A stretch of DNA of 64,000 bases from Callorhinchus milii. Its lineage: Eukaryota. The notes under the pieces are model-generated. The model ran no database searches, was not told the DNA's origin, and saw only the letters and a program-made list of their open reading frames with translations. Each line of letters opens with the position of its first letter. The first letter of the stretch is position 1. Of the stretch, positions 3,538 to 23,904 are shown in pieces. The position numbers and the translations under genes are program-made. The stretch is taken from the NCBI RefSeq assembly GCF_018977255.1, contig NW_024704757.1, positions 7,874,001 through 7,938,000 on the forward strand, given 5' to 3'.

Positions 3538-4527
3538 GCATTCCTCAGGGCTCTGTCCTCGGTCCCCTCCTCTTCACCCTCTACCTGCTCCCCCTTGGTG
3601 ACATCATCCGCAGACATGGGGTAAATTTCCACATGTCATGCGGATGACACCCAACTCTATCTCTCTGCCTCCACCCTCAACTGCAGGACTACTGGCGTCC
3701 TGACCGACTGCCTGTCCGACATCAAGTCCTGGACAAGGGACAACTTTCTCCAGCTGAACGTCAGCAAGACCGAGGGCCTCCTGATTGGCTCGGGCCGGAG
3801 CCTCCGCACCTCGGGCGCTGGCAGCAACAGCATCCACGGCTGCGCACTCAACCTCACTAAGCCAGTCAGGAACCTGGGTGTCTTGTTTGACCCTGAACTG
3901 TCCTTTCTTCCCCACATCCGCGCCATGACCGGCACTGCCCACCACCACCTCCGCGCCATGACTCTGCCACTGCCTCACCCCTCAGGCTGCGAAACCCTTA
4001 CCCATGCACTTGTCACATCAAGGATCGATTATAGAAATTCTCTCCTCATCGGCCTTCCCAACTCTTCCCTTCGCAAGCTGCAGATCATTCAAAACTCTGC
4101 CGTTCATGTACTCTCGCGCACCAGGCTCCGTGACCCCATCACTCCCATTCTCGAATTCAAGATCCTCTATGGCCTTGCCCCCGCCTACCTCATTAACCTG
4201 CCCACTTCCTCTGTTCAGCGGGCTCCGGCCTGCTCCCGCCCGACCTGCCCTACCATCAGTGGCCGAGCTTTCAACCTCTCTGCCCCCACACTCTGGAACT
4301 CCATCTCACAGTCCCTTCGGCTCGCTTCCTCCCATGCCTCCTTCAAAACCGGTCTCAGGACCCTCCTCTTCGATCGTGCCTTCGGTCACCCTTCCACCTT
4401 TCTGCCTTCCCAAACTCCTACCCCACTCCTCCCCCATGCTCAGGTCCTGACCTCTGAATCTCCATCAAGTGCCTTGGAACATCCTCCCGATGTGAAAGAC
4501 ACTCTATAAATGTAATTTTGTTGTTGA
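3538..4527 (+). mobile_element. L2-clade LINE, 5'-truncated and degraded
   Basis: IPQGSVLGP...ADDTQLY RT motifs, FDPELSF, SRIDY.NSLL, DPITPIL; (TTG)n tail. Confidence 0.9.
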
Positions 4528-9099: not shown

Positions 9100-9536
9100 G
9101 CGGGTGAGGGGGGCGAAGGGTGAGGGGGGGAGGGGTGAGGGGGGGAAGGGGTGAGGGGGGGGGAAAGGGGTGAGGGGGGAAGGGAAGAGGGGGAAGGGGT
9201 GGGGGGGGAAGGGGTGAGGGGGGAGGGGGGGGGTGAGGGGGGAAGGGGTGAGGGGGGAAGGGGGGTGAGGGGGGAAGGGGTGAGGGGGGGAGGGGGGAGG
9301 GGGGGGGAGGGGGGAGGGGTGAGGGGGGGGGGGAAGGGGTGAGGGGGGAGGGGGGAAGGGGGTGAGGGGGTGAGGGGGGGAGGGGGGGGGGGAGGGGTGA
9401 GGGGGGAAGGGGGGGGGGGGGGGTGAAGGGGTGAGGGGGGGGGGAGGGGTGAGGGGGGGAAGGGGTGAGGGGGAGAGGGGGGGAAGGGAAGGGAAGAGGG
9501 GTGAGGGGGTGAGGGGGAGGGGGGGGGGGGAGGGAA
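9100..9536 (+). repeat. G-rich low-complexity repeat (GGGGTGAGGGGGG(A/G) units)
   Basis: About 430 bp of reiterated G4-G12 runs; causes the spurious poly-Pro/Gly ORFs. Confidence 0.95.
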
Positions 9537-10002
9537 AGGAGGCGCGACATCAAACCTCGTCGCTGGAGAGGATCGAGAAGGTGCGGCACATTTCTCCGCA
9601 ACCGGTTGCGGGGCGGCGAGGAACCGCACTCCGATCCCCGCTTGTTGCGGGCCGAGCCGAGCCGAGCCGACCCAGGGCAACGGCAACCGGGCTGTAGCCG
9701 GCCTCAGTGTCCCCGGGCCGGGCCGGGCCGGGCCTGGGGGGCGGGAGGGCAAGCGGCCCCGCGCCGGGTACCGGAGAGGAGGGAAAAGAGCGGGAGGAGG
9801 AGGCGACGCCGCCGCCGCTAAAAAGCCCGGCAGACACCCGCCCGGTGAAGGGAAGACACCGGCCTCCCCTCCCCCCCCCCAGTCCGCACCCGCTCCCGCA
9901 CAGCGCGGCGGGAAAGCCCCGTCAAGTGAGGTCGACCTCAGGAGCAGACAATTACCTCCAAAGCCACCGCTCCCGTGTACCCGGTGTTGGCCAGTCGGTC
10001 TG

Positions 10003-10100
10003 TGAGGGGGGTCCCGGTGGGGGGAGGGGTCCCGGTGGGGGGAGGGGTCCCGGTGAGGGGGTCCCGGTGAGGGGGAGGGGTCCCGGTGGGGGGGTCCCGG
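10003..10100 (+). repeat. Minisatellite GGGGTCCCGGTG(G/A)GGGG
   Basis: About six imperfect ggggtcccggtg units in tandem. Confidence 0.9.
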
Positions 10101-10204
10101 ACGGCAGTTGCTCCGAGTCTCAGGTTTGAAAAGTTCCCGCTCGAGGCTGCGCGCGCTGCTCCTCACACGTCATCACGTGGCCATGTGCCATGTGCCAGTT
10201 GAGC

Positions 10205-10356
10205 GCCACTGTACCCACTGTACCCACTGCCATCCACTGTACCCACTGTACTCACTGCCATCCACTGTACCCACTGCCCCACTGTACCCACTGTACTCAC
10301 TGCCATCCACTGTACCCACTGCCATCCACTGTACCGACTAATCCACTGTAATCCAC
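10205..10356 (+). repeat. Minisatellite (CCACTGTAC/CCACTGCCAT)n
   Basis: Reiterated 9-10-bp ccactgtac-type units; resumes at 10620 after a SINE. Confidence 0.9.
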
Positions 10357-13239
10357 AGTAATAATAATAATAATCCTTGCATTCGATATAGCACTTTTCA
10401 CGTCGGGAGGACGTCCCAAAGCGCTTCACAGAACACACTGTAAAGGGAATTGACTGTATATTTGTGGGCGAACGCGGCAGCCAATTGCGCACAGCAATGT
10501 CCCACAAACAGTCGTAGATTGAAAATGACCAATTTATTATTGTTTTGGTTTTGGAGGGATTATTATTCGGCTCTGTGTGGAGTAAGGAAACTTGCCCAAG
10601 GTTTCACCCTCTGCCTGGAACTGTACCGACTGTAATCCACTGTAATCCACTGTACAGCCACTGAGAGACAAGTGCTCTGGGACGCTACCCTGCTTGAGGG
10701 GCACTATATGAAATGCAAGTTGTTGTTGTACACACTGCAGCCCATTGTACGTGCTGTAATCACTGTAAAAGACTGCACACTGTATACTCCCTGCAATTTT
10801 GCACATTGCAATTCACTGTACACACTGCAGCCTTCTGTAGTGTCAGCCTGGGGCAGCGGCAGCACTCTCGCCTCCACGCTCTGACATCGTGGGTTCACAA
10901 CTGGGACATGGAATCACATTGTCTTAGATGACATTTCAATGCGGCACTGGGGGTGTTACAATGTGGGAAGTGTCATCCTTCAAATGAGATGTTAAACTGA
11001 GGTCCTATGGCACTGAAAATAGAAGTGAGTTTCTCCTGGTGCCCTGGCCAACAACCCCCCAAATAAAATTGGCCACTCACTCGATGGCTGTTTGTGGGAC
11101 ATTGCTGTGTACAATTGGCTGCTGCATTTGGCCCACAATTTACACAATCAATACACTCTACAGTATATCCTGTATATATGCTTTGAGATGTCTCAATGAC
11201 GTGACAAGGCACTACATCAAATCAAAGATTATTATTACTACTATTATTATACACATTGCAACCCAAACCCACTGCTCCTTATTATACTTGCTGCAATCCA
11301 GAGTCACTTCATTCACCACAATAAATAAATGATACTTGACAAGAACATTGTGTTTGTATATTGTTAATACTGGGTAGCACAATTCTAATTATACAGTAGC
11401 AACATATCATCTGCCAATGCATACTACCCAGTACATATCCAAGTTACATCATCCATTTATGGGGTCATCTGTACTTAGGGAACATGTTGAATCCTTGAAG
11501 ATGCCTCCAACCATCTTTTGACTGTTGTTACCTACACAGGAGATTTGCTATCAGATTTCATATATTCTGTTCCCACAGTACAATTTCTGTACTATGTCTA
11601 ACCATAAACAATGACATTGTCAGTGCTGCTTATTCCCATAGAACCCAAACACATTCAGCACAAAGGGAGGAAGGTTGGCCTGAACTGTGCCATGTCCCTA
11701 CCGGATTAAGGTGCAATCTTAAAACAGACATTGGGAAGTGTTTCTTCATACAGAAGGTAATCTTCAGCTCGAACAAGTTATCAGGAGGAAGGGCGGTTGA
11801 GTCCAGATTGCTGGGCTAATTTAAGAAACAGTTTGTTGCTGTGGACGTCCAGGGTCTTGGGACGTCCTCCTGACATGAAAGGTGCCATACAAATGTAATT
11901 TATTGTAACAGAAAGATGGTTGGCTTGGTATTCATAGAATCATAAAATCATACAACACAGAAGGAGGCTATTCGGTTCATCGTGAAAAGCACTATATCAA
12001 ATGCAAGGATTATTATTATATTATTATTAACGTCCCTGCCTGCTCTTTGAAAGAGCTGTTCAAATTAGTCCCACGCCCCCCTTCTCTCCCCAATTCTGGA
12101 AGGATGAGACAAACCGCCTTCTCCATCTGCACTGATCCTGTGATCTTGTCCCTGCTGAACTGAATGTAAATCAACTCCAACCGTTAAGTGATGATTGAAG
12201 AAGCAATGCTTCCCTTTGAATGTTTACAATCGGACGGGCTGACAGACCGTCTGCTGAGCAAACTCCCACACAGCTGTAGCATGACGCTGTTCCCAAGGCA
12301 ACTGTTTTGCAAAGGAACAGATATGTTGGGCTCAGCTTTGAGTTTCTCTGAAGTTTTTTTTTGAACAGCGGGCAGGACTTGGAGGGCATGGGGTGTTCTG
12401 TTTCCCCACATCTGCTATAAAGGTATTAGGATAAGCACATTATTTAATTGAAAAAGATAATCATCACATTGTGAATTTTTTGGGGCATAGGATATCTGAA
12501 AAAAAGTTATTTAATGATTTTAAACATCCTCACATTTAATCTCAGCTGTATTTTCTGCTAAGTTCTAAATAATCACATAGCATTAAAAGTTGAATAACAT
12601 AAGATTGATAATACTTATTGCGGAAGTTCTGATCATCTGGCAGAGCAAGCCAGAAGTTATTTATGACAACAACGTTCAGGTAAAGGAGAGACACACTGCA
12701 AAAAAGGTAAACAGAGAGATCATCTAAACCGATTAATTAAGGCAAAAAGGTGACCGGAGATATTTGGACAGATCAGTACATTGTATGATTTGACAAATTG
12801 CATCTTCCTGCATTGGGGATATTCTTTTTTTTTTCAAAGCAATTTAGGATGTTATGACTGTATCCTCTGTGTGATGGGAAGCCAGTGGAGTTGGGCGAGA
12901 ATGGGGGTGATAGGGTCACGGAGCCTAGTGCAGGAGAGGACATGGGCTGCAGAGTTCTGGATGATCTGCAGCCTGTGGAGGGAGGAGTTGGCGAGGCCGA
13001 CACGCAGTGAGTTTGCATAGTGGAGCCTCGATGTAATGAAAGCGTGTATAGTGCATATAACGCTTCACATGTTCAAACTCGTGCTACGTAATTTCAATCA
13101 TAAAGACCTTTTGCCAGTGTGTGGGTTTGTCACATTTTCTGCACAATTGTGTGTCCCTTAAACATCTCCTTACACAGTCAAACAATCATATAAATGCTTC
13201 CAAATCGGTGGGGCTGGGTTATGAATATGTATCACAGAC

Positions 13240-14866
13240 ATATCACAGACATCGTCAACCTGTCCCATATCACAGACATCGTCAACCTGTCCCTCTCCTC
13301 TGGCTCTATTCCCATTCCCTTAAAAACTGCCACCATCACTCCCACCTTAAAAAAACCCTCCCTTGATGCGTCGCAGCTATCAAGCTACCGGCCCATCTCC
13401 AACCTCCCCTTCCTATCCAAGGTCCTGGAACGAGTTGTCGCCTCCCAGCTGCGCTCTTTCCTCTCCAACCATTCACAATTCGAACCCCTTCAATCGGGTT
13501 TCCGTGCTGCCCATAGCACAGAAACTGCCCTGGTCAAGGTCACCAATGACATCCTGACCATCTGTGACCAGGGCTCCCTCTGCCTCCTCGTCCTCCTCGA
13601 CCTATCGGCAGCATTCGATACGGTCGACCACACTATCCTCCTCCACCGCTTGTCCTCCCACCTAAACCTTCAAGGCCCTGTCCTTGAGTGGTTTAGGTCG
13701 TACCTCTCCCACCGTCTTCACTTTGTCTCCACAAATGGTTTTTCCTCCGGCCCCCACACTGTCTCGGTGTCCCTCAAGGCTCTGTCCTCAGTCCCCTCCT
13801 CATCACCCTCTATATGCTCCCCCTTGGTGACATCATCCGCAGACATGGGGTTAACTTCCACATGTATGCGGATGACACCCAACTCTACCTTTCCTCCTCT
13901 ACCCTCAACTCCACGACCACCGATGTCCTGACAGCTGCCTGTCCGACATCGAGTCCTGGACGAGAGATAACTTTCTCCAGCTCAACGTGTGCAAAACTGA
14001 GGCCCTCCTGATTGGCTCACGTCAGCGCCTCCGCACCTCAGGCGCCGACACCATCAGCATCCAAGGCTGCACTCTCCACCTCTCAAAGCCAATCAGGAAC
14101 CTCGGGGTTCTGTTCGACCCTGAGCTGTCCTTTCTCCCTCACATCCGCACCACAACTGGCACCGCCTTCCATCACCTCCGGAACATCGCCAGATTACGGC
14201 ATTACCTCACCCCTCACGCTGCTGAAACCCTGGTTCACGCCTTTGTCACCTCAAGGCTGGACTATGGGAACTCTCTCCTCACCGGCCTTCCCGCCACCTC
14301 CCTCCACAAGCTGCAGGTCATTCAGAACTCTGCAGCTCGTGTACTGTCCCGCACCAGGCTTCGGGACCACATCACTCCCACCCTCGCTCGCCTCCACTGG
14401 CTCCCCATCCCCCAGAGGATCGAATTCAAGATCCTCACCCTCACCTACAAGGCCATTCACGGCCTTGCTCTCTCCTACCTCTCCGACCTACTATCCCCCT
14501 ACCTACCTGCCCGTACCCTCCGTTCCTCTGGCTCCGGTCTGTACCACATCCCCCGCCCCAACCGCCCTACTATCGGTGGCCGGGCCTTCAGCCACTCAGC
14601 CCAGAGGCTCTGGAACTCTATCCCCCAGTGCCTTCGCCGCCTCCTCCCTTTCCTCCTTCAAGGCCGGTCTCAAGACCTTTCTCTTTGACCGTGCCTTCAG
14701 CTCCCCTCTCGACTCTCTACCCCCTCCTCGCTCCCTCCCTCCCTTCCCTCCCCTCACCCTGACCATTTCCCCCCTGCTCGGGTCCTGACCCAACTGTACA
14801 GCACCTTGGGATGTCCTCCCGATGTGAAAGGCGCTCAGTAAATGGAATCTTGTTGTTCTGTTGTTG
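13240..14866 (+). mobile_element. L2-clade LINE, 5'-truncated (longest copy), frameshifted RT
   Basis: [61 protein letters not shown] across three frames; 3' UTR and (TTG)n tail. Confidence 0.95.
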
Positions 14867-15278
14867 TAAAACTAGAATGTGCACTTTGCACATTAAAAAA
14901 TAAATTCCAAAACAAGCTGCCTGGAAACATTTGGATGATAATATCAACCAGCCCCAATATTTTCCCTAAGTCCCTTTGCATTAATTTCTTATTGATTAGA
15001 ATCGGAATTTTTTCCACCCTTGATAAATGCCCGATCACTTGAGCAGAATATTGTGTGAGTACATCGATAGTTGCTCTCGAGCATTTCCCAACGAGGCTGA
15101 GGCTGAATACAATAATGTACAAGGGGGGTATCCTGTTCTGTACTGTAATCCGATCGTTGCTATCACAACAGTACCACGTGATTAATGCGGAAGATTGCTT
15201 TTGCTTGAATCCGTTGCTGTTTTCCAGCAGTTTCAGAGAAAGTAACCCCATTGTCAGAGCTGCATTTGCTCATGAAAG

Positions 15279-15354
15279 ATGAAGATGTGGACTGCTACCC
15301 TTATCATTTCCGTCCTCTCCTGTACTGGGTGTCTGGTGGAGCCTGCAAACCCAG
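15279..15354 (+). CDS. Candidate first coding exon (signal peptide) of an unrecognised gene
   Basis: ATG AAG ATG TGG... = MKMWTATLIISVLSCTGCLVEPANP(G): basic N-terminus, hydrophobic core, small residues. Ends at CAG|gtacag donor, phase 1; sits in a CpG-retaining patch. Confidence 0.5.
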
Positions 15355-15436
15355 GTACAGCCGTGTGTTGCGAACCTGGCAGCCGTGCGCTTAACACAAG
15401 CAGCAACTTTGTTCAGTGTTGCCAATTACTCCACAG

Positions 15437-15459
15437 AGTGAGTGAGTGAGTGAGTGAGT
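15437..15459 (+). repeat. (GAGT)n microsatellite
   Basis: agtgagtgagtgagtgagtgagtg. Confidence 0.9.
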
Positions 15460-16714
15460 GGCTTCCTGCTGTCAGCTTGTTAACGTTTTCCTGATGTGCC
15501 CTTGCCGTTCCTGTTATCAAAGATCAGCGATAATAAATGCATCGTGTTAACGTCGCTCAGTCATTAATAATCATTCCCCCGATTGATTGTGATTCCCCAC
15601 ATATACTTACTGCAACAGTTGCCTGGCAACGGTGCAAGGCACGAGTTTGTTTATTTGTTTGATCGGTTGGTAATTTGGGTTCGCATGTTGTGCTATGTTC
15701 AAATCGCACTGTCTGGGTTCTCTTTACAATGTGTGATATTTACACCATTTAAAGCCTTAGAGCTGAAAAAAGCTTTGCGGGGATTCAGCTGAAGAGGATG
15801 GGGACAGGATCAAAGAGAAGGTGACAGCGGTGAACCATACTACGAGGCTCCAAGGATACAACCTGCCTTTTGCAGTCATAAAGAAAAGCTGGCAGCACCT
15901 GGTTGATAAGTAATTGCAGAAAATACTGTAGTGTTTTTCTGTAGGAGAGGGAAAAAAGGTCCCCCAAACCAACAATGAGTAAAGAATTCCTTAGAGCAGA
16001 GAAGGTTAAGGGGAGATTCAATAGCGGTGTTCAAAATGAGATGTGTTGATAAAAAATAAGGAGAAACTGTTTCCACTGGTGAGTGGGTAACCAAAGGCCA
16101 CAATTTTAAGATAATTGGCAAAAGAACCAAAGGGTGGAAAAGGAGAATTTTGTTTTACGCAGTGATTACCTGAAAGGGTGATGGAAACAGATTCAATAAT
16201 AACTTTCAAACGGGAATTGGATATATATTGATACTAAAAATATGCAAAGCTCTGGGGAAACTGGGACTAATTTCTAAGAGCCGGCATAGACAAGATGAGC
16301 TAAATAGCCTCCTTCCTAGCTATAGGATGGAAAAAGATTGTATTGCAGATCTCCTTATAGAGAAAATAGTTTTTTTCCCCCAATACAATTATTTTCAACA
16401 TACTGTACTTGAAAGGCCATCAGATTCCAGCATCTGGCCAGCACTGAGGTTGTTTTTAAGCAACTTCAACAAGAAAGCCTCATCATTGTGAGGAGGCTTC
16501 TGAAGTTGCCCCAGGGATCAGTGCAACTCAAAGCTCACTGAGTGTGGGTCACTGAATGTTGTGTTTCTCCCCTCCTCCTCCACACATGGGTCAGAGGACA
16601 ATCACAATGTCACCTGGAAGGTCAATTATACCACTTCAAGTTGTCAGTCCATTTACGGACCTCAGGGATGGGATCTTTATCTGGGAACATCTGGTCCCTT
16701 CCACCTCTGCCACT

Positions 16715-17092
16715 GTACCTTACCCCAAGTGCAGCCGAAACCCTTGTGCATGCGTTTGTCACCTCCCACTTGGATTACTCCAATACACTCCTCACCGGTC
16801 TCCCCAGCTCCACCATTCACAAGGTCCAGCTCTTTCAAAACTCTGCCGCCCGCATACTGACTCGGACCAAACTCCATACCCACATCTCACCAGTTCTGGC
16901 CCAGGCTCCACTGACTCCCCATCACTGAACGGATCGACTTTAAGATCCTCGCACTCGTGTACAAATACATTCACTCCCTGGCACCTCCCTAGCTCTCCAA
17001 CCTCCTCACTCCCCCTGGCTCGGAATCAGGCTCTGCCACTGTTAAGCACTCTGAGGGTGGAGGGCACTATGTAAGTGCAAGTTGTTATTGTT
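16715..17092 (+). mobile_element. L2-clade LINE fragment
   Basis: [21 protein letters not shown]...[16 protein letters not shown]; gttgtt tail. Confidence 0.85.
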
Positions 17093-19358
17093 GAGTTCGC
17101 GTTATAAGCTCACATCACATCATCAAAGTGTCTACATTTATGGACCAGGAGAATACAACTTTCTCAACAACAGAAACAATATGCACTAATATAATAATAA
17201 TCCTTGCATTCGATACAGTGCTCATGTTCATCTCGTGTTATCGAGAGGACTCAAAGTGCTTCATAGGATTTTACTGTTCAGTGCATTTATTTATAGGCAA
17301 ACTCAGCAGCCAAATTGTACACAATGTCTCACAAATTTCGATAGGAGGACTGTTGGCCATGACAACAGAAGAACCTCCCTTCTCTTTTCGAATGGTGCTT
17401 TGCAATCTTTAATGTCCACCCGAACAGGTAAACAGGACCTGCTGCACTGCCTGATATCAATGAGCTGTGACCTTTTTGCTCTGTGTGGCTTAAGCTGCAA
17501 CATTTCCACGTTGAAACCGATTCATTACTCTTCTGACAGCTACATAAAATCTGTCAAGGTTGCTTTCATACCGAGGTATTCCTCCTCGGGATTTGTGGAT
17601 TGTTCAGAATCTGGAAATTGTCTGAGTGAATGTCTCATGACTTCAAGTCATTCCAAGGTCATTTCAGTCAGAACAGTCACACCATTTTGTTCTCATATTT
17701 ACCAGATGGTCATGTGGAATAAACCAAATTTTCAAGGGGGCTGGGGAATGGTGTTGATTATTCAGATCTCTTGATATCAGGACTGCATTTCACCCCCCCC
17801 CCCACCCTTTTGATTTGGAGTTCTGCCACAATGCAAGATTTTAGATCTATTCAGTATATTTCTATTCCACCGCTGTCACTGGTGAAAAATGTAAAGAAAA
17901 AAAATCCCATTTTATCTTGGAATTGTTAATCAGGGTACCTTCTCTTTTCAAATAGTACTGCAGTATCTTTAATGTCCACCTGAACAGGTAAATGGGACCT
18001 GCTGCACTGCCTGATACCAATGAGCTGTGAGGTGATCCAATTTTAACAGCTCACGCACCTGACGTCAAACCAAAAAAGTAGAAGTTCAAGCCGCAGATTT
18101 GCCTTCTGCCACTAGGCAAGAGATACACTCAAAGGTAAAGATCCAGGAACAGGTTATGGACAGATTCACTGTCTCAGAATCTAGGAGAGAAAATAAATAA
18201 TACAACACCTTTCATGTTCTGGAGGACGTCTCAAAGCACTTCACAGGATATACTGTAAAGCCAATTTGTGAACAGAGATGTCCCACACGCAGCCCTGAAG
18301 TCAACGAAGATTCTTATCTGTAGATTGTTGGCCAGGGCACCGGGAGAAACTCAAATCGTTCCGTGAGATCTTTAACATCCATCTAAAAAGGCAGGCCCGA
18401 CCTCAGTTTGATGTCTTATCTGCAGAACAGCAATTCCAACAATGCCACACACGCCCAGCACTGGAATGTCAGCCTCGCCTTGTCAATTTAAAGTCCGGAT
18501 TCAGGCAAAGTACCACCCATTGAGCCCGGCTGACACCTAAAGCTGGTAATAAACAGAGAAAAAAACGTAATAATTAGTGCCTGGCTACTATCAATGTCTG
18601 CCGTGCTTGTGTGTGAAAAGAGCAAATGTGACTTAAAACTAAAAAAATTGGTACTTACGGTGAGTTTAATTCTCTGGGGACACCAATTGACAGAAAGCTG
18701 ATACTGCAAGTTGTTCAGCTTTTCCTCCTCATGTGGTGACCCTTCACATCAGCCATAAAAATGCGCCATGCGATCATAGACTGGTTGTGAGACAGACTGA
18801 GGCTAATTAGCCCATCCTGACTTTGCTGCCGACTGCTCTTTCCACCAGATTTCTGCACTCTGAACCCATTTGATTGCTCTTTCCCTTTAATATTTTACCC
18901 TTTAATATTTTTCCTTAACCATTTGATCGCTTCCCGTTTAAAAGGCTACTTATTCAAGTTTGAGAACCGCTTGCAGCAAGGCATTTGATAATCTAACATC
19001 ACTCCGGTCACAGTGCATTAAAGACTATACCAGACAGGAGGGAAGGGAGTGGGAAAAGTAGTAAAGATGGGGATAGAAGAGAAATTTAGGAATTCAATGT
19101 ATAAATGTCAGTAAATAAAATTTTTAAAAATGGTTACAGTTTATATGGCCTTCATGTTGAGGGCATGTTTCAAAGTGCTTCACAGGATATACCTTAAAAT
19201 GTTATCACTGTATTTTGTGGCAAATGAAAATTTTAAATAGAATTTATAAAGCTAAGGTACCGTATATTAACGGATTCAGGTTCTCATCCCCTAAATCAAC
19301 GTGTTTCACAACAATTTTAAAGGTCTGTTGAATGGCTCATTTCTTTTTTTCATTTTAG

Positions 19359-19400
19359 CTTCTCAGGGAAATACAATTGCTGAAACATTCTTGAGAGAGG
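19359..19400 (+). CDS. Candidate internal exon of the same gene
   Basis: Long pyrimidine tract tttctttttttcattttag acceptor; (A)SQGNTIAETFLRE; G|gtaaaa donor, phase 1-1. Alternative donor CAG|gtagga at 19474. Confidence 0.35.
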
Positions 19401-20161
19401 GTAAAAAGCAGCTGCACAGTTTGTGTTGTGCACATTCGCTGCCTTGCATTGGGCCAAGAAAGACGCAAAGCCAGGTAGGAAAGATTCTGCTGCTCTGATA
19501 GAACGGCATCCAGTGGCCACTGTTAACGCTGTCAGTCAAGAGCATTTGCGGCTCCATTGCAGGCACAGCAAAAATAACTGCTCTGTGCACTTCACACTTG
19601 TCGTGTTGTACACGTTTGCATGTCGACACGTAATCGTTCAAACTGCACTGCAGCTGAAATGCAGAATTTGCCACCAGAATCTCAAATAATAATAATAATC
19701 CTTGCATTCTCAACGTCTCAAAACGCTTCACAGAATAGACTGTAGAGTGAATTGACCGTATATTTGTGGGCGAAACGCGGCAGCCAATTGCGCACAGCGG
19801 CGTCCCACAAACAGTCGTGGATTGAAAATGACCAATTTATTATATATTATCAAATACAATTTATTATATATTACAATTTATTATATACTATCAAAATTTA
19901 CTATCAAATACAGAACCCTGCTGGTAACTAGATGTGGAGAGCATTTGGTGTGAGATACATCCTCTTCCTGGCAGGATTCACAAATCCTGTTGAGAATGAC
20001 CCTTGTTACTCCTGCACCTGTTGGCTGCATCGCTTATAGAATGGCAGTACAAAAAAAATCAAGGATTTATTTTGCCCAACACGTAACAGTAATGCCCGAT
20101 AACCTGTATATTAAAATATTGATTTTATTTACAGTTTGCAATAAAAAATGAACTGTTTCAG

Positions 20162-20224
20162 AAATACTCCACAGGGCACCAGTAATTCAAAGCAACGTTG
20201 GAGAAGATCTTGTCGCGTTCTGTA
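20162..20224 (+). CDS. Candidate internal exon of the same gene
   Basis: tgtttcag acceptor; (E)ILHRAPVIQSNVGEDLVAFC; A|gtaaat donor; 63 bp, phase 1-1. Confidence 0.3.
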
Positions 20225-20516
20225 GTAAATTTAGATTTGTAACAAATGGGAGTTTCTCCTAATGTTCTGACCATATCCCCCAGATGAAATTGGTCATTCA
20301 CTTCATGGCAGTTTGTGGGACGTTGTTGAGTGCAAGCTGGCTGCCATGTTTGCCTACAAAACACCCTATAAGCGTTTTGAGATGTCTCGGCAATTGTGAT
20401 AAGATGCTACATCACATTGCGTGGACTATTATCTCACTTTTTCCATTACATAGATTTTTTTTCTCTTTTTTACATGTTCTCCATGTGCTTGAAGAATGAA
20501 TCCCCCACTTTTACAG

Positions 20517-20635
20517 GATTAGATATTGAAGAACTACTGCAAAGGAACGCCAATAAAATCCGCCGGGTGAACCCGGTTCACTCCAGCACTGACGTCACCA
20601 GCAGCAAAACTCAACACTCTAAAACTGAACTGTGA
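20517..20635 (+). CDS. Candidate terminal coding exon ending in the ER-retrieval-type motif KTEL
   Basis: cccccacttttacag acceptor; LDIEELLQRNANKIRRVNPVHSSTDVTSSKTQHSKTEL*; ATTAAA (20664) and AATAAA (20687) follow. Confidence 0.5.
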
Positions 20636-20686
20636 CGACTAACAAGTCCTTTGATGGTTTGCTATTAAAATTTATCTTTTGGGAAA

Positions 20687-20692
20687 AATAAA
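20687..20692 (+). terminator. Candidate polyadenylation signal of the plus-strand gene
   Basis: AATAAA 52 nt after the KTEL stop codon, followed by T-rich sequence. Confidence 0.4.
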
Positions 20693-22962
20693 AGGAAATA
20701 TTATCTTTACTTTGACAGCCTAATTTTTTTTACCTTTGTAGTTTGTAATTTGCAGCAGAGGCCAGATTAAGAAGCGACGCATCACCAGAGGGTGAGTTGT
20801 TAAATCGAGGAGACCAGGAGTTCAAAAAGGGAAGGGAGTTTCTCCAAGTCCTGATAGTCAATCCCCCAGATACAATTCGCTCCTCGGCCGTTTGTGGGAT
20901 AATGCTGTGTGCAAATTAGTTGCTGGGTTCTCCTACAAACAGACAGTGGACTTTATAGTAAAATCGTGAAGTTTTTTGAGACTGATGATATAAGAAGCTA
21001 TATCAAACGCAAGGACTGTTATAAAAGCATTGTGTAATATAATCTTTGCATTTGATTTAGCACTCAAAGCGCTTCACTGAATATACTTTAAAGTGAATTG
21101 ACTGTATATTTTGTGGCGAAATGCAGCAGAGAATTGCGCTCAGCAGTGTCCCTCCCACAAACAGCCATGGATTGAGTGACCAAATTATTCTTTTTTTAAG
21201 GGATTATTAATAACCCCTTGATCGTAAAGCGATCCGCCAATTGACTAACAACTGGGTTCCTACTTACTGCAAGGTAAACAGAAGCACGTGTGTGGAGTAA
21301 GGTAACTTGCCTAAGGTTTTGCCCCACCCGGGAATCAAACCCGGGTACTGTTATTAGCATTTTTCTTTCGGTTTATGGTCAAGCGTGATCAGTGAGTAGA
21401 TCTGGGTTTGAGATTCACCACGGTGCTGAACATTTTCCCTCTATTGGGGAAAGTATGTGTTGAAATTGAAGTTATAAAATGGAAAATGATCCTTAATGAA
21501 GATGAATATATTAATCACAAGAAAAACAAGTGGATAAGTTGCTTTGTTTATACAGGGCAATGTAAAAAATGGGCATTCGGTACTGAGGCGTACTTTGGAG
21601 TGGTAACCCTGGATAATTGTTCTCTCTATCTCGAGAAAGCTTTTGATAACAAAACTGCTACCTTGTTGAGATGAACTAACACAGAACACAGTGGGAATTT
21701 AAATTTAGACGGCAACTCTCGGGGTGGGGGTGGGGGGGTGGAGGGAGAGAAATTCCACCTGGATCCAAAAATAAAAATAACCTTTTTTNGACAAAGTTGC
21801 AGGGTTTGACTTATTCTTAACATCCGTCTTAATTTTAAAATCAGGGCAGAAAACTACTTTCAGAATTGAGATGAAATTTTTAATTCTGTATGCACCTGCT
21901 AACCAAGTAACACAAGGCTACATCCAGTGGAATTTCTCTCCAGCTGGTCTATGTATATGGCTTTGTGCCTTTTCCCTACCGATCAGGCAAAGCGATACAT
22001 TTTACATTTAATACAAATTTGTGTCCAAAGAAAAGATTTACCCTAAGTTAAAATCTTGTATGAGTATTATGATTTCAAGAATGAATGTTACAGCAAATAA
22101 TTTATTAAATTTCGTACACACAAAATGAACAATACTGTATCAGCAAAAACATAACAAATAAAAAAATGTTCAAGATAGTGACTTGAACCATGGAATTATC
22201 AGGAAAGTTAACATGAAAATAGTTATGAAAATTTAAAATGGTTGTTAAAACAGGGGAGGTGAGAATTTTTTTAACAAAGTGAGTTGTTCGGATCTGGAAT
22301 GCATTGCCTGAAATGGTGATGGAAGCTGATTCGATAACAGCTTTTAAGAGAGGTAGATAACTATTTGGGGAGGACAAGTTTGCAGGGCTATGGGGAGTGG
22401 GATTGAATTGGTAGCTCTTTCAAAGGGCCGGCACAGACACGATGGACTGTATAATTCTATGTACAGAACGGTGATTGTTGCCTGTGTAAAATATTTTTAA
22501 AAAATTTGTTGTAAAAATGCAAGACATTGAGAGCAAGTAAAAATGTAGTCAAAGAGTATTTTAAGTTATCTTACGCACGGTTGCAGAAGTACCTTTCGAA
22601 AAACTGGGAGACACAGCAGTTAAATAAACTTTGGATTTTTTTGTCTCATCAAAAAGTTATCTCATCAAACCTAATCCCACAACTCTCAGGCCTAATGTCA
22701 ATCATAAGAGCTGTAATTAAGAAGCAAAGCTACATTTTAAAACTGATTCAACCTGCTGAGACAAAGATGATCTGGACAGAATTACCAAAAGCATTTAACA
22801 AATGAAAACAAACATGCCACACAAAGACATCTTAATGTCTGCTCTTAACAGCTCAGAGAACTTCAGTAACGTCCGGTTGATCAACAATGGATTTTCAACA
22901 TGAATGACCGTCCAACTCCAAACAATTATACTATCCCTATATTTCATTTAGCATTTAAGGCA

Positions 22963-22968
22963 TTTATT
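22963..22968 (-). terminator. Probable polyadenylation signal of DNAAF5
   Basis: tttatt on + (AATAAA on -) about 150 nt downstream of the DNAAF5 stop. Confidence 0.55.
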
Positions 22969-23116
22969 GGGGGAAAAGTACTGGGTGTGCTGCCTAGTCA
23001 ATGGATATTTTGGTGTTTGTAGATTAAAATATATTCTGTTGTTACATTCAAGTGTGAGTTATCCATCATTAGAACACTACACAGTCTCAATGGGGTTTGT
23101 TGAATCTTCAGCTGTT

Positions 23117-23261
23117 TCAGGCTTTGCTCGTGTTGTTGTTCAGTGACCAAATGTGCTGGAGGAGCTGCTCGCAATAATGAGGAGTGCGGTGCTTGTGTTT
23201 CACAGCCTCAATTTCTTGGATGAGCACCTGTGGGAAAATAAAGCTTCCTGCTTTGAGACAT
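23117..23261 (-). CDS. DNAAF5: DNAAF5 terminal coding exon (approx. exon 13), with apparent 1-nt frame defect at its 5' end
   Basis: Conserved frame reads [46 protein letters not shown] (cf. human [16 protein letters not shown]). Pyrimidine tract plus acaacag acceptor; 145 bp to TGA, one short of the 146 needed. Confidence 0.9.
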
Positions 23262-23904
23262 CTGTTGTAAAAAAGGACAAAAAAAATAATTCAACATCAG
23301 ACATTTCTCAATATATTTTCAAAAGTAACATATTTATGTTTATATATACACTAGCTGTGCCCATTGCAGCTTCACTTGCAACTAACGGATCCAATATGGA
23401 ATGTAGATATTTCATCTTTATCTATGCTCAGCTGGGAGGACTCCTGGGGGAGGACTCTTTTTGGGAGGATTCCTTTAATATATTTTCTCTCTCAGTCTCT
23501 CTGTCTCAAGTCTTTCATTGTTTCTCACACAAAACACAGTCACTACACTTTATAATACGTTCTTCCTCAGTCTCTCTCTCTGTCCCACATGGGAGGACTC
23601 TAGCTCCCATGACAATCAAAAAAAAGTACCGAACATTTGTTGTAGAATATAGATGCATTTCTCTGAACGGTGTGTGCTGTCGCCTGTTGCCATATAGTTG
23701 CAGATTACGATGCATACTTCATATTTGAAGGCTTAATTAAAGCAATTTAAATACAGCTCATCAACGATAGGAGATTCCCCCAAATAAATATGGCCATGAC
23801 ACTGCCAGATGCAAGACCTTTTTGATGAGGTATAAATCATGACTCTACATCGATCGGTTATTGCGTGAGTGTCACTGACACACAGACAGACACTTTGTTT
23901 TAAT

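Follow-up and report, generated by a model that had tools for sequence, protein, structure and literature searches.

Does the interval between DNAAF5 and the neighbouring SUN-domain gene of the elephant shark (Callorhinchus milii) hold a further gene, and what would such a gene encode? We addressed this question in a 64,000-nucleotide (nt) stretch of genomic DNA (contig NW_024704757.1, positions 7,874,001 to 7,938,000; the window, whose first letter is position 1 below). A sequence-only reading had placed in it, on the plus strand between DNAAF5 and a CpG island, an unannotated four-exon gene for a 99-residue protein with a signal-like N-terminus and a terminal KTEL. Transcript contigs supported such a gene and redrew its exons: a spliced, single-copy, unannotated gene lies on the plus strand beside DNAAF5, with two splice junctions, a frame that stays open to a terminal KTEL and no second copy in the genome. 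Its product is probably an orphan secretory-pathway microprotein.

In order to find transcripts of this locus, positions 20490-20740 were used as a query against sequencing runs, and 10 of the 13 runs listed contained the stretch. Six of these ten, from two studies, were taken to be RNA by guess. Contigs of the four best runs, X1 and X2 from one study and X3 and X4 from the other, were placed on 14750-23400, with X5-X10 left out; the joint table being full of repeats, junctions were taken from contig pieces, and our statements rest on the matches listed. One X3 contig (record 17, 182 letters) joins 15289-15352, an exon-1 side of 64 letters, to 19357-19474, and one X4 contig (record 25, 310 letters) joins 19357-19472 (116 letters) to 20493-20684 (192 letters). 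At both junctions a 2-nt overlap reads AG on either side, which together with the contig ends places the introns at 15355-19358 (4004 nt, phase 1) and 19475-20494 (1020 nt, phase 0, with a repeat inside it at about 20248-20365). Because both introns are GT..AG on the plus strand, the joined molecules came from that strand and not from DNAAF5. The 188 letters of X1 record 1 comprise 42 before and 30 after 19357-19472 (42+116+30), and the depths of its exon-1 bins, 0.84 and 1.24, equal exactly 17 and 25 letters at depth 14.3; since this arithmetic fits exactly, the first 42 letters are exon 1 (15311-15352), and the last 30 appear to match the opening letters of X1 record 4, at 20493, one letter below the bridging threshold. 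Junction support thus comes from contigs of two studies, directly in X3 and X4 and by depth arithmetic in X1, and neither junction was present in X2 among the matches listed. Each exon has one match in its own genome, with no paralog or retrocopy, and in a genome with no processed copy a retrocopy cannot mimic the splicing.

The gene so defined begins with a coding segment at 15279-15354 (76 nt, codons 1-25 plus one base), whose phase-1 donor, CAG/GTACAG, is the one used in X3 record 17. Exon 2 (19359-19474, 116 nt, residues 26-64) ends in the phase-0 donor CAG/GTAGGA and is present entire in contigs of X1, X3 and X4, and the coding part of the last exon (20495-20635, 141 nt) supplies residues 65-110 and the stop codon. 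A short 3' untranslated region (UTR; 20636-20701) contains the AATAAA noted by the sequence-only reading, at 20687-20692. Contigs stop beside it, at 20684 in X4, 20696 in X3 and 20701 in X1, a weak hint of a 3' end, and one lower-depth X1 contig extends to 21013. The few letter differences in exon 2, all non-synonymous, lie at 19388 in X3 and at 19390 and 19398 in one X2 contig (depth 3.2). They are possibly errors; the T>C change at 19388, which runs throughout the X3 exon-2 contig (depth 13) and turns Phe36 into Leu, is a probable allele.

Several features of the same data speak against so clean a picture. The runs were considered RNA by guess only, none being on record as RNA. X2 record 9 (15176-15428) passes the exon-1 donor unspliced, and contigs of X1 and X2 cover intronic DNA, as expected of a poorly processed transcript; contig depths of the gene are 13-21. 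No spliced contig reaches the ATG, the longest starting at 15289, 10 nt past it. The ATG is covered by the unspliced X2 record 9 only, and X1, X3 and X4, which lack cover upstream of 15289, were not used as evidence on the start site.

These contigs changed the exon chain proposed from sequence. The four proposed segments are in the DNA as described, with AG/GT ends, a sum of 300 nt and a 99-residue frame to KTEL and stop, and the transcripts do use the proposed donor at 15354, the acceptor at 19359 and the last exon. Spliced contigs linking exon 1 to the last exon, whose absence would have spoken against the gene, were found as well. The sequence-only reading was nevertheless wrong in its third exon, in three of its six splice sites, and in the length and the middle of the protein. 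Contigs of X1, X3 and X4 continue through the proposed donor at 19400 to 19472/19474 and run across the proposed acceptor at 20517 from 20493/20500, and use of neither site was seen among the matches listed; the proposed exon 20162-20224 is skipped by X4 record 25 and crossed unspliced by X1 record 2. Nor are the introns all in phase 1, the second being in phase 0, and the corrected frame of 110 residues includes a Cys-Cys-x5-Cys motif that the 99-residue version had skipped. Minor isoforms that use these sites may be among the 243 joints and 18,353 pieces beyond the matches listed. In favour of the 99-residue version as the main product of the gene are this unlisted remainder, canonical splice dinucleotides, an open frame and, at 20517, an acceptor with a fair pyrimidine tract. 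With 19400 and 20517 crossed unbroken by contigs of three runs, 20162-20224 skipped in X4, only 7 pyrimidines in 17 positions at acceptor 20162 and GTA/GTAAAT as donor at 20224, we regard this as very improbable.

The three coding segments add up to 333 nt and 110 residues, and no ATG frame of the spliced sequence is longer. Two codons ahead of Met1 there is an in-frame stop, and Met1 and Met3 both have A at -3; an upstream out-of-frame ATG (15272-15274, plus strand), in a weak context with C at -3, starts a frame of 35 codons that closes in exon 2. The exon-1 part carries Met1, Lys2, Met3, a hydrophobic run at residues 7-15, Cys15 and Cys18, with an N-terminal hydropathy peak of 2.3 (9-residue window, within the first 25 residues), and past residue 25 the top 15-residue hydropathy stays below 1.6, leaving the mature chain with no transmembrane segment. 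The only cysteines are those at 15, 18, 48, 49 and 55, the last three forming the Cys48-Cys49-x5-Cys55 motif of exon 2. Dibasic pairs occur at KK 41 (G40-K41-K42), RK 59 (R59-K60) and RR 87 (R87-R88), with no KR, and a single sequon at residue 65 is followed by Pro. Ser and Thr make up 9 of the last 18 residues, and the chain ends in KTEL, which the stop codon of the last exon follows immediately and which the RNA-defined junctions place in the frame of exon 1. Models made per exon from single sequences gave two predicted helices and no strands for a mature chain of about 92 residues: residues 32-50 in exon 2 (mean predicted local distance difference test score (pLDDT) 79, predicted template modelling score (pTM) 0.44) and residues 75-89 in exon 3 (mean pLDDT 74, pTM 0.34).

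Is this frame translated? The junctions provide a test that is independent of the choice of exons in the earlier model: the 96 nt that the RNA adds to that model preserve the phase and introduce no stop before KTEL, an outcome that random local DNA inserts give in 5,488 of 100,000 trials (5.5%). The frame occupies 333 nt of a transcript of about 460-510 nt, about two thirds, and we counted the position of the stop codon in the last exon, before a short 3' UTR, for coding. When the spliced sequence was dinucleotide-shuffled under two assumed 5' ends, ATG frames of at least 110 codons arose in 95 and 56 of 20,000 shuffles. A signal-like start accompanied such a frame in 6 and 3 of them, an xxEL end in none of either set. 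Frames of at least 110 codons were found in 5 of 542 genomic tiles, none of them signal-like, and a [KRH]xEL terminus in 5 of 6,424 background frames. On balance the gene is probably protein-coding, a judgement we hold with fair confidence.

The alternative is a spliced long non-coding RNA (lncRNA) that runs antisense to read-through from DNAAF5 and diverges from the CpG island of the SUN-domain gene, and in which the 110-codon frame arose by chance. The transcript is spliced, longer than 200 nt and has no known protein relative, as is usual for an lncRNA; such RNAs also have no frame above chance, customarily fewer than 100 codons, whereas this one has 110. The retained introns, the contig depths and the lack of spliced cover over the ATG would all suit an lncRNA. 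The codon-usage score of -0.008 is compatible with an lncRNA and with coding alike: 12 DNAAF5 exons scored -0.10 to 0.20, and 10 of 110 non-coding frames scored as high as the gene. That KTEL and an X-box discussed below were noticed after the fact counts against the secretory-pathway reading set out further on. Excerpts of PMC3466250 describe 6,229 non-redundant full-length C. milii cDNAs without protein similarity, and the deposits of that study may include a cDNA or expressed sequence tag from the present gene; with thousands of such transcripts, a few long signal-like chance frames would be expected genome-wide. In the same excerpts the 'noncoding' class is defined by a lack of BLASTX similarity, so an orphan protein would fall into it. 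The lncRNA leaves the frame-keeping junctions, which the earlier model did not foresee, to a 5.5% chance, and has to reckon with a frame that takes up two thirds of the transcript and with the absence from all 40,000 shuffles of a long frame with both a signal-like start and an xxEL end. A search of 10000-23400 against Rfam returned nothing. We take the lncRNA seriously as a rival, while thinking it unlikely.

Support for an lncRNA also comes from the homology searches, which found no relative of the protein and likewise weigh against a coding gene. Protein searches were made exon by exon and not with the full 110-residue chain, and their sensitivity for queries of 38-46 residues is low. Exon 3 (46 residues) against proteins of 82-2000 residues gave three candidates and exon 2 (40 residues) against proteins of 71-2000 residues gave two, none of them at E≤10; exon 2 gave no match at E≤0.001 among 1.84 billion representatives. 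The ESM Atlas held no usable match to exon 2, and the best match to exon 3, at 0.77, was not usable; PDB sequences yielded none at E≤10 for either exon. In Pfam, a KNOX2 match (E 0.13) fell below the cut-off and was rejected, and there was no other match exon by exon. A control search with a DNAAF5 exon gave 17 of 57 candidates, including C. milii itself (100%) and three other cartilaginous fishes (72-80%). Since this control returned no mammal or teleost, the word search misses diverged relatives. Shark and ray proteins were nevertheless present in the collection searched and no homologue of the gene was among them. An annotated copy of at least 82 residues would very likely have been found, so the protein is very likely absent from the sets searched, although C. 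milii DNAAF5 is present in the same database. Literature searches on DNAAF5/HEATR2 with SUN1 (synteny, PRKAR1B) or on C. milii with KTEL returned nothing on the gene, the DNAAF5/SUN1 titles being on mammalian genetics.

If the frame is translated, what kind of protein would it make? The reading we favour, which we put at just short of an even chance, is a 110-residue protein of the secretory pathway that is predicted to be retrieved leakily to the endoplasmic reticulum (ER) through its C-terminal KTEL. Ribosomes would bypass the weak upstream ATG at 15272 by leaky scanning and start at Met1 or Met3, and the hydrophobic residues 7-15 would serve as a signal peptide, with cleavage near Gly17/Cys18; support for this signal peptide is limited to hydropathy, a further point against the reading. 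The mature chain of about 10 kDa may consist of two short amphipathic helices (32-50 and 75-89) around a Cys48/Cys49/Cys55 loop, and its Ser/Thr-rich flexible tail could offer KTEL to KDEL receptors, which would return most of the protein from the Golgi and leave the remainder to be secreted, as is reported for AGR2. More speculatively still, the protein, whose mature chain has three or four cysteines, might bind secretory cargo through a thiol or the faces of the helices and act as a small aid to folding or trafficking.

The portions of PMC2140024 available list KTEL among ER motifs and give it as the end of the human proteins AGR2, PCYOX1 and KTELC1, all located in the ER; CDNF is described, in part of PMC4731063, as a KTEL-ending client of KDEL receptors. 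The same portions of PMC2140024 report that many such proteins remained in the ER without their motif, and passages of PMC4940162 report that AGR2 is also secreted, independently of KTEL. Because of both reports, KTEL alone does not fix the location of the protein, a point against the favoured reading. The gene product resembles these clients (AGR2, PCYOX1, KTELC1 and CDNF) in its predicted signal peptide, the lack of a later transmembrane segment, KTEL as the last four residues of a flexible tail, small size and free or paired cysteines, and differs from them in that no sequence similarity was found, in its length of 110 residues and in an ER location that is predicted only. The sequence-only reading had recognized no similarity to AGR2 or CDNF, and the exon-wise Pfam and PDB searches upheld this. 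The thioredoxin fold with CXXS/CXXC of AGR2 and the PDI family is not seen here, given the lack of Pfam and PDB matches and the two predicted helices without strands. CDNF and MANF have saposin-like and SAP domains with eight cysteines, whereas the five cysteines here include two in the signal region, and no Pfam match was found.

The same chain could instead be the precursor of a secreted peptide hormone or neuropeptide, cut at K41-K42, R59-K60 and R87-R88, with KTEL incidental. Its products, as part of this reading, would be an amidated N-terminal peptide, with Gly40 as amide donor, and a second peptide that begins with Gln and carries a Cys-Cys-x5-Cys ring. Size, the signal-like first exon, the three dibasic pairs and the Gly before KK fit such a precursor, but pairs of this kind are common by chance, convertases cut poorly at KK and RK, and the chain has no KR. 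The exon-2 helix is predicted to run uninterrupted across GKK, no hormone family matched in Pfam or PDB exon by exon, and the terminal [KRH]xEL, rare by chance, would be left unexplained. Fish hormone genes have been overlooked by homology before, an example in the available portion of PMC12714231 being zebrafish secretin, whose type of precursor is alike in having about 100 residues, a signal peptide in the first coding exon and dibasic pairs. The elephant shark product differs from these precursors in its weak cleavage sites, its ER-retrieval-like end and the absence of a demonstrated conserved core. We consider a hormone precursor doubtful.

A Cys-Cys pair a few residues past a basic site is also found in insulin/relaxin A chains, orexin and CC chemokines, and some CC chemokine genes share a 76-nt phase-1 first exon, but the number and spacing of cysteines here are unlike any of these, and there is neither a B-chain-like segment nor an amidated C-terminal core. 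Insulin and relaxin combine an A-chain CC-x3-C-x8-C with a B chain holding two Cys, whereas CC-x5-C here is followed by no later Cys. CC chemokines have CC near the mature N-terminus and two further spaced Cys, whereas here the mature chain runs for about 30 residues before CC and has a single Cys after it; neither family gave a Pfam match. Judged by its predicted sequence, then, the protein has the layout of a KTEL-type KDEL-receptor client yet lies outside the AGR2/PDI, MANF/CDNF, insulin/relaxin and CC-chemokine families.

Where might the gene be expressed? Intron 1 contains, 264 nt from its start and in single-copy DNA, a palindromic X-box (15618-15630) that matches the RFX consensus perfectly. 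This is the one strict match in the window, against none in 100 shuffles, and one of two in 134 kb, the other lying at the DNAAF5 start codon (window-equivalent 77055-77069). Excerpts of PMC5752003 give this consensus and connect it with ciliary promoters, and the site at the DNAAF5 start codon fits RFX control of a ciliary gene. The intron-1 site hints at a candidate regulatory element under RFX, and expression might then be sought, as the most speculative step, in RFX-driven ciliated, sperm-forming or neuroendocrine cells; against this, a looser X-box consensus is expected, by a rough estimate, about once per 134 kb. A promoter island around exon 1 was considered and rejected as too weak (CpG observed/expected 0.58-0.68, values near the window's 90th-95th percentile). 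Farther upstream on the plus strand, 12280-12710 is a single-copy promoter-like stretch with a cyclic-AMP-response-element-like half site, a relaxed X-box at 12289, a TATA-like box at about 12417 and strong donor-like sites at 12679 and 12707; it may be a separate unit, or it may provide the gene with a non-coding first exon that joins the good acceptor at 15229.

The gene lies on the strand opposite to both neighbours. DNAAF5, correctly named by the sequence-only reading, occupies 13 minus-strand exons from just past the right end of the window down to its last coding exon at 23120-23257, convergent with the gene; an exon in the window matches UniRef DNAAF5 of C. milii at 100% over 63 residues, and 22101-22106 is the probable poly(A) signal of DNAAF5. 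Beyond that signal, near-continuous low-depth contigs of X1 and X2 cover 20076-22077, across the last intron and exon of the gene, and may represent DNAAF5 antisense read-through, nascent RNA or DNA. On the other side, a minus-strand SUN domain is encoded 23-25 kb beyond the left end of the window, in a gene that we take to be SUN1 from human gene order. A GC- and CpG-rich island at about 9.5-10.2 kb, with a minus-strand donor-like site near 9955 and an adjoining G-rich low-complexity tract (9102-9536), is likely the promoter and non-coding first exon of that SUN-domain gene. The introns are rich in short interspersed repeats, and broken reverse-transcriptase-like fragments of the long-interspersed-element type lie at 13194-14790, 3540-4510 and 16600-17090.

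The elephant shark serves as a reference for the ancestral gene set of jawed vertebrates, and we know of no human protein-coding gene in the DNAAF5-SUN1 interval. The sequence-only reading had proposed a lineage-restricted or mammal-lost gene; the protein collections searched returned no homologue. It is conceivable, though in our view unlikely, that jawed vertebrates had from early on a gene between DNAAF5 and SUN1 that mammals lost but cartilaginous fishes, and perhaps amphibians and other fishes, kept. Such a gene would found an unrecognised family of microproteins, ER-cycling or hormone-like, that RFX turns on in ciliated or neuroendocrine cells. Were the transcript non-coding, it would be an ordinary lncRNA. 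If it is coding, it would specify an orphan secretory-pathway microprotein outside known families and would be a candidate for a gene that disappeared in the lineage leading to mammals; it would also show that the elephant shark genome still has small secreted or ER proteins without annotation.

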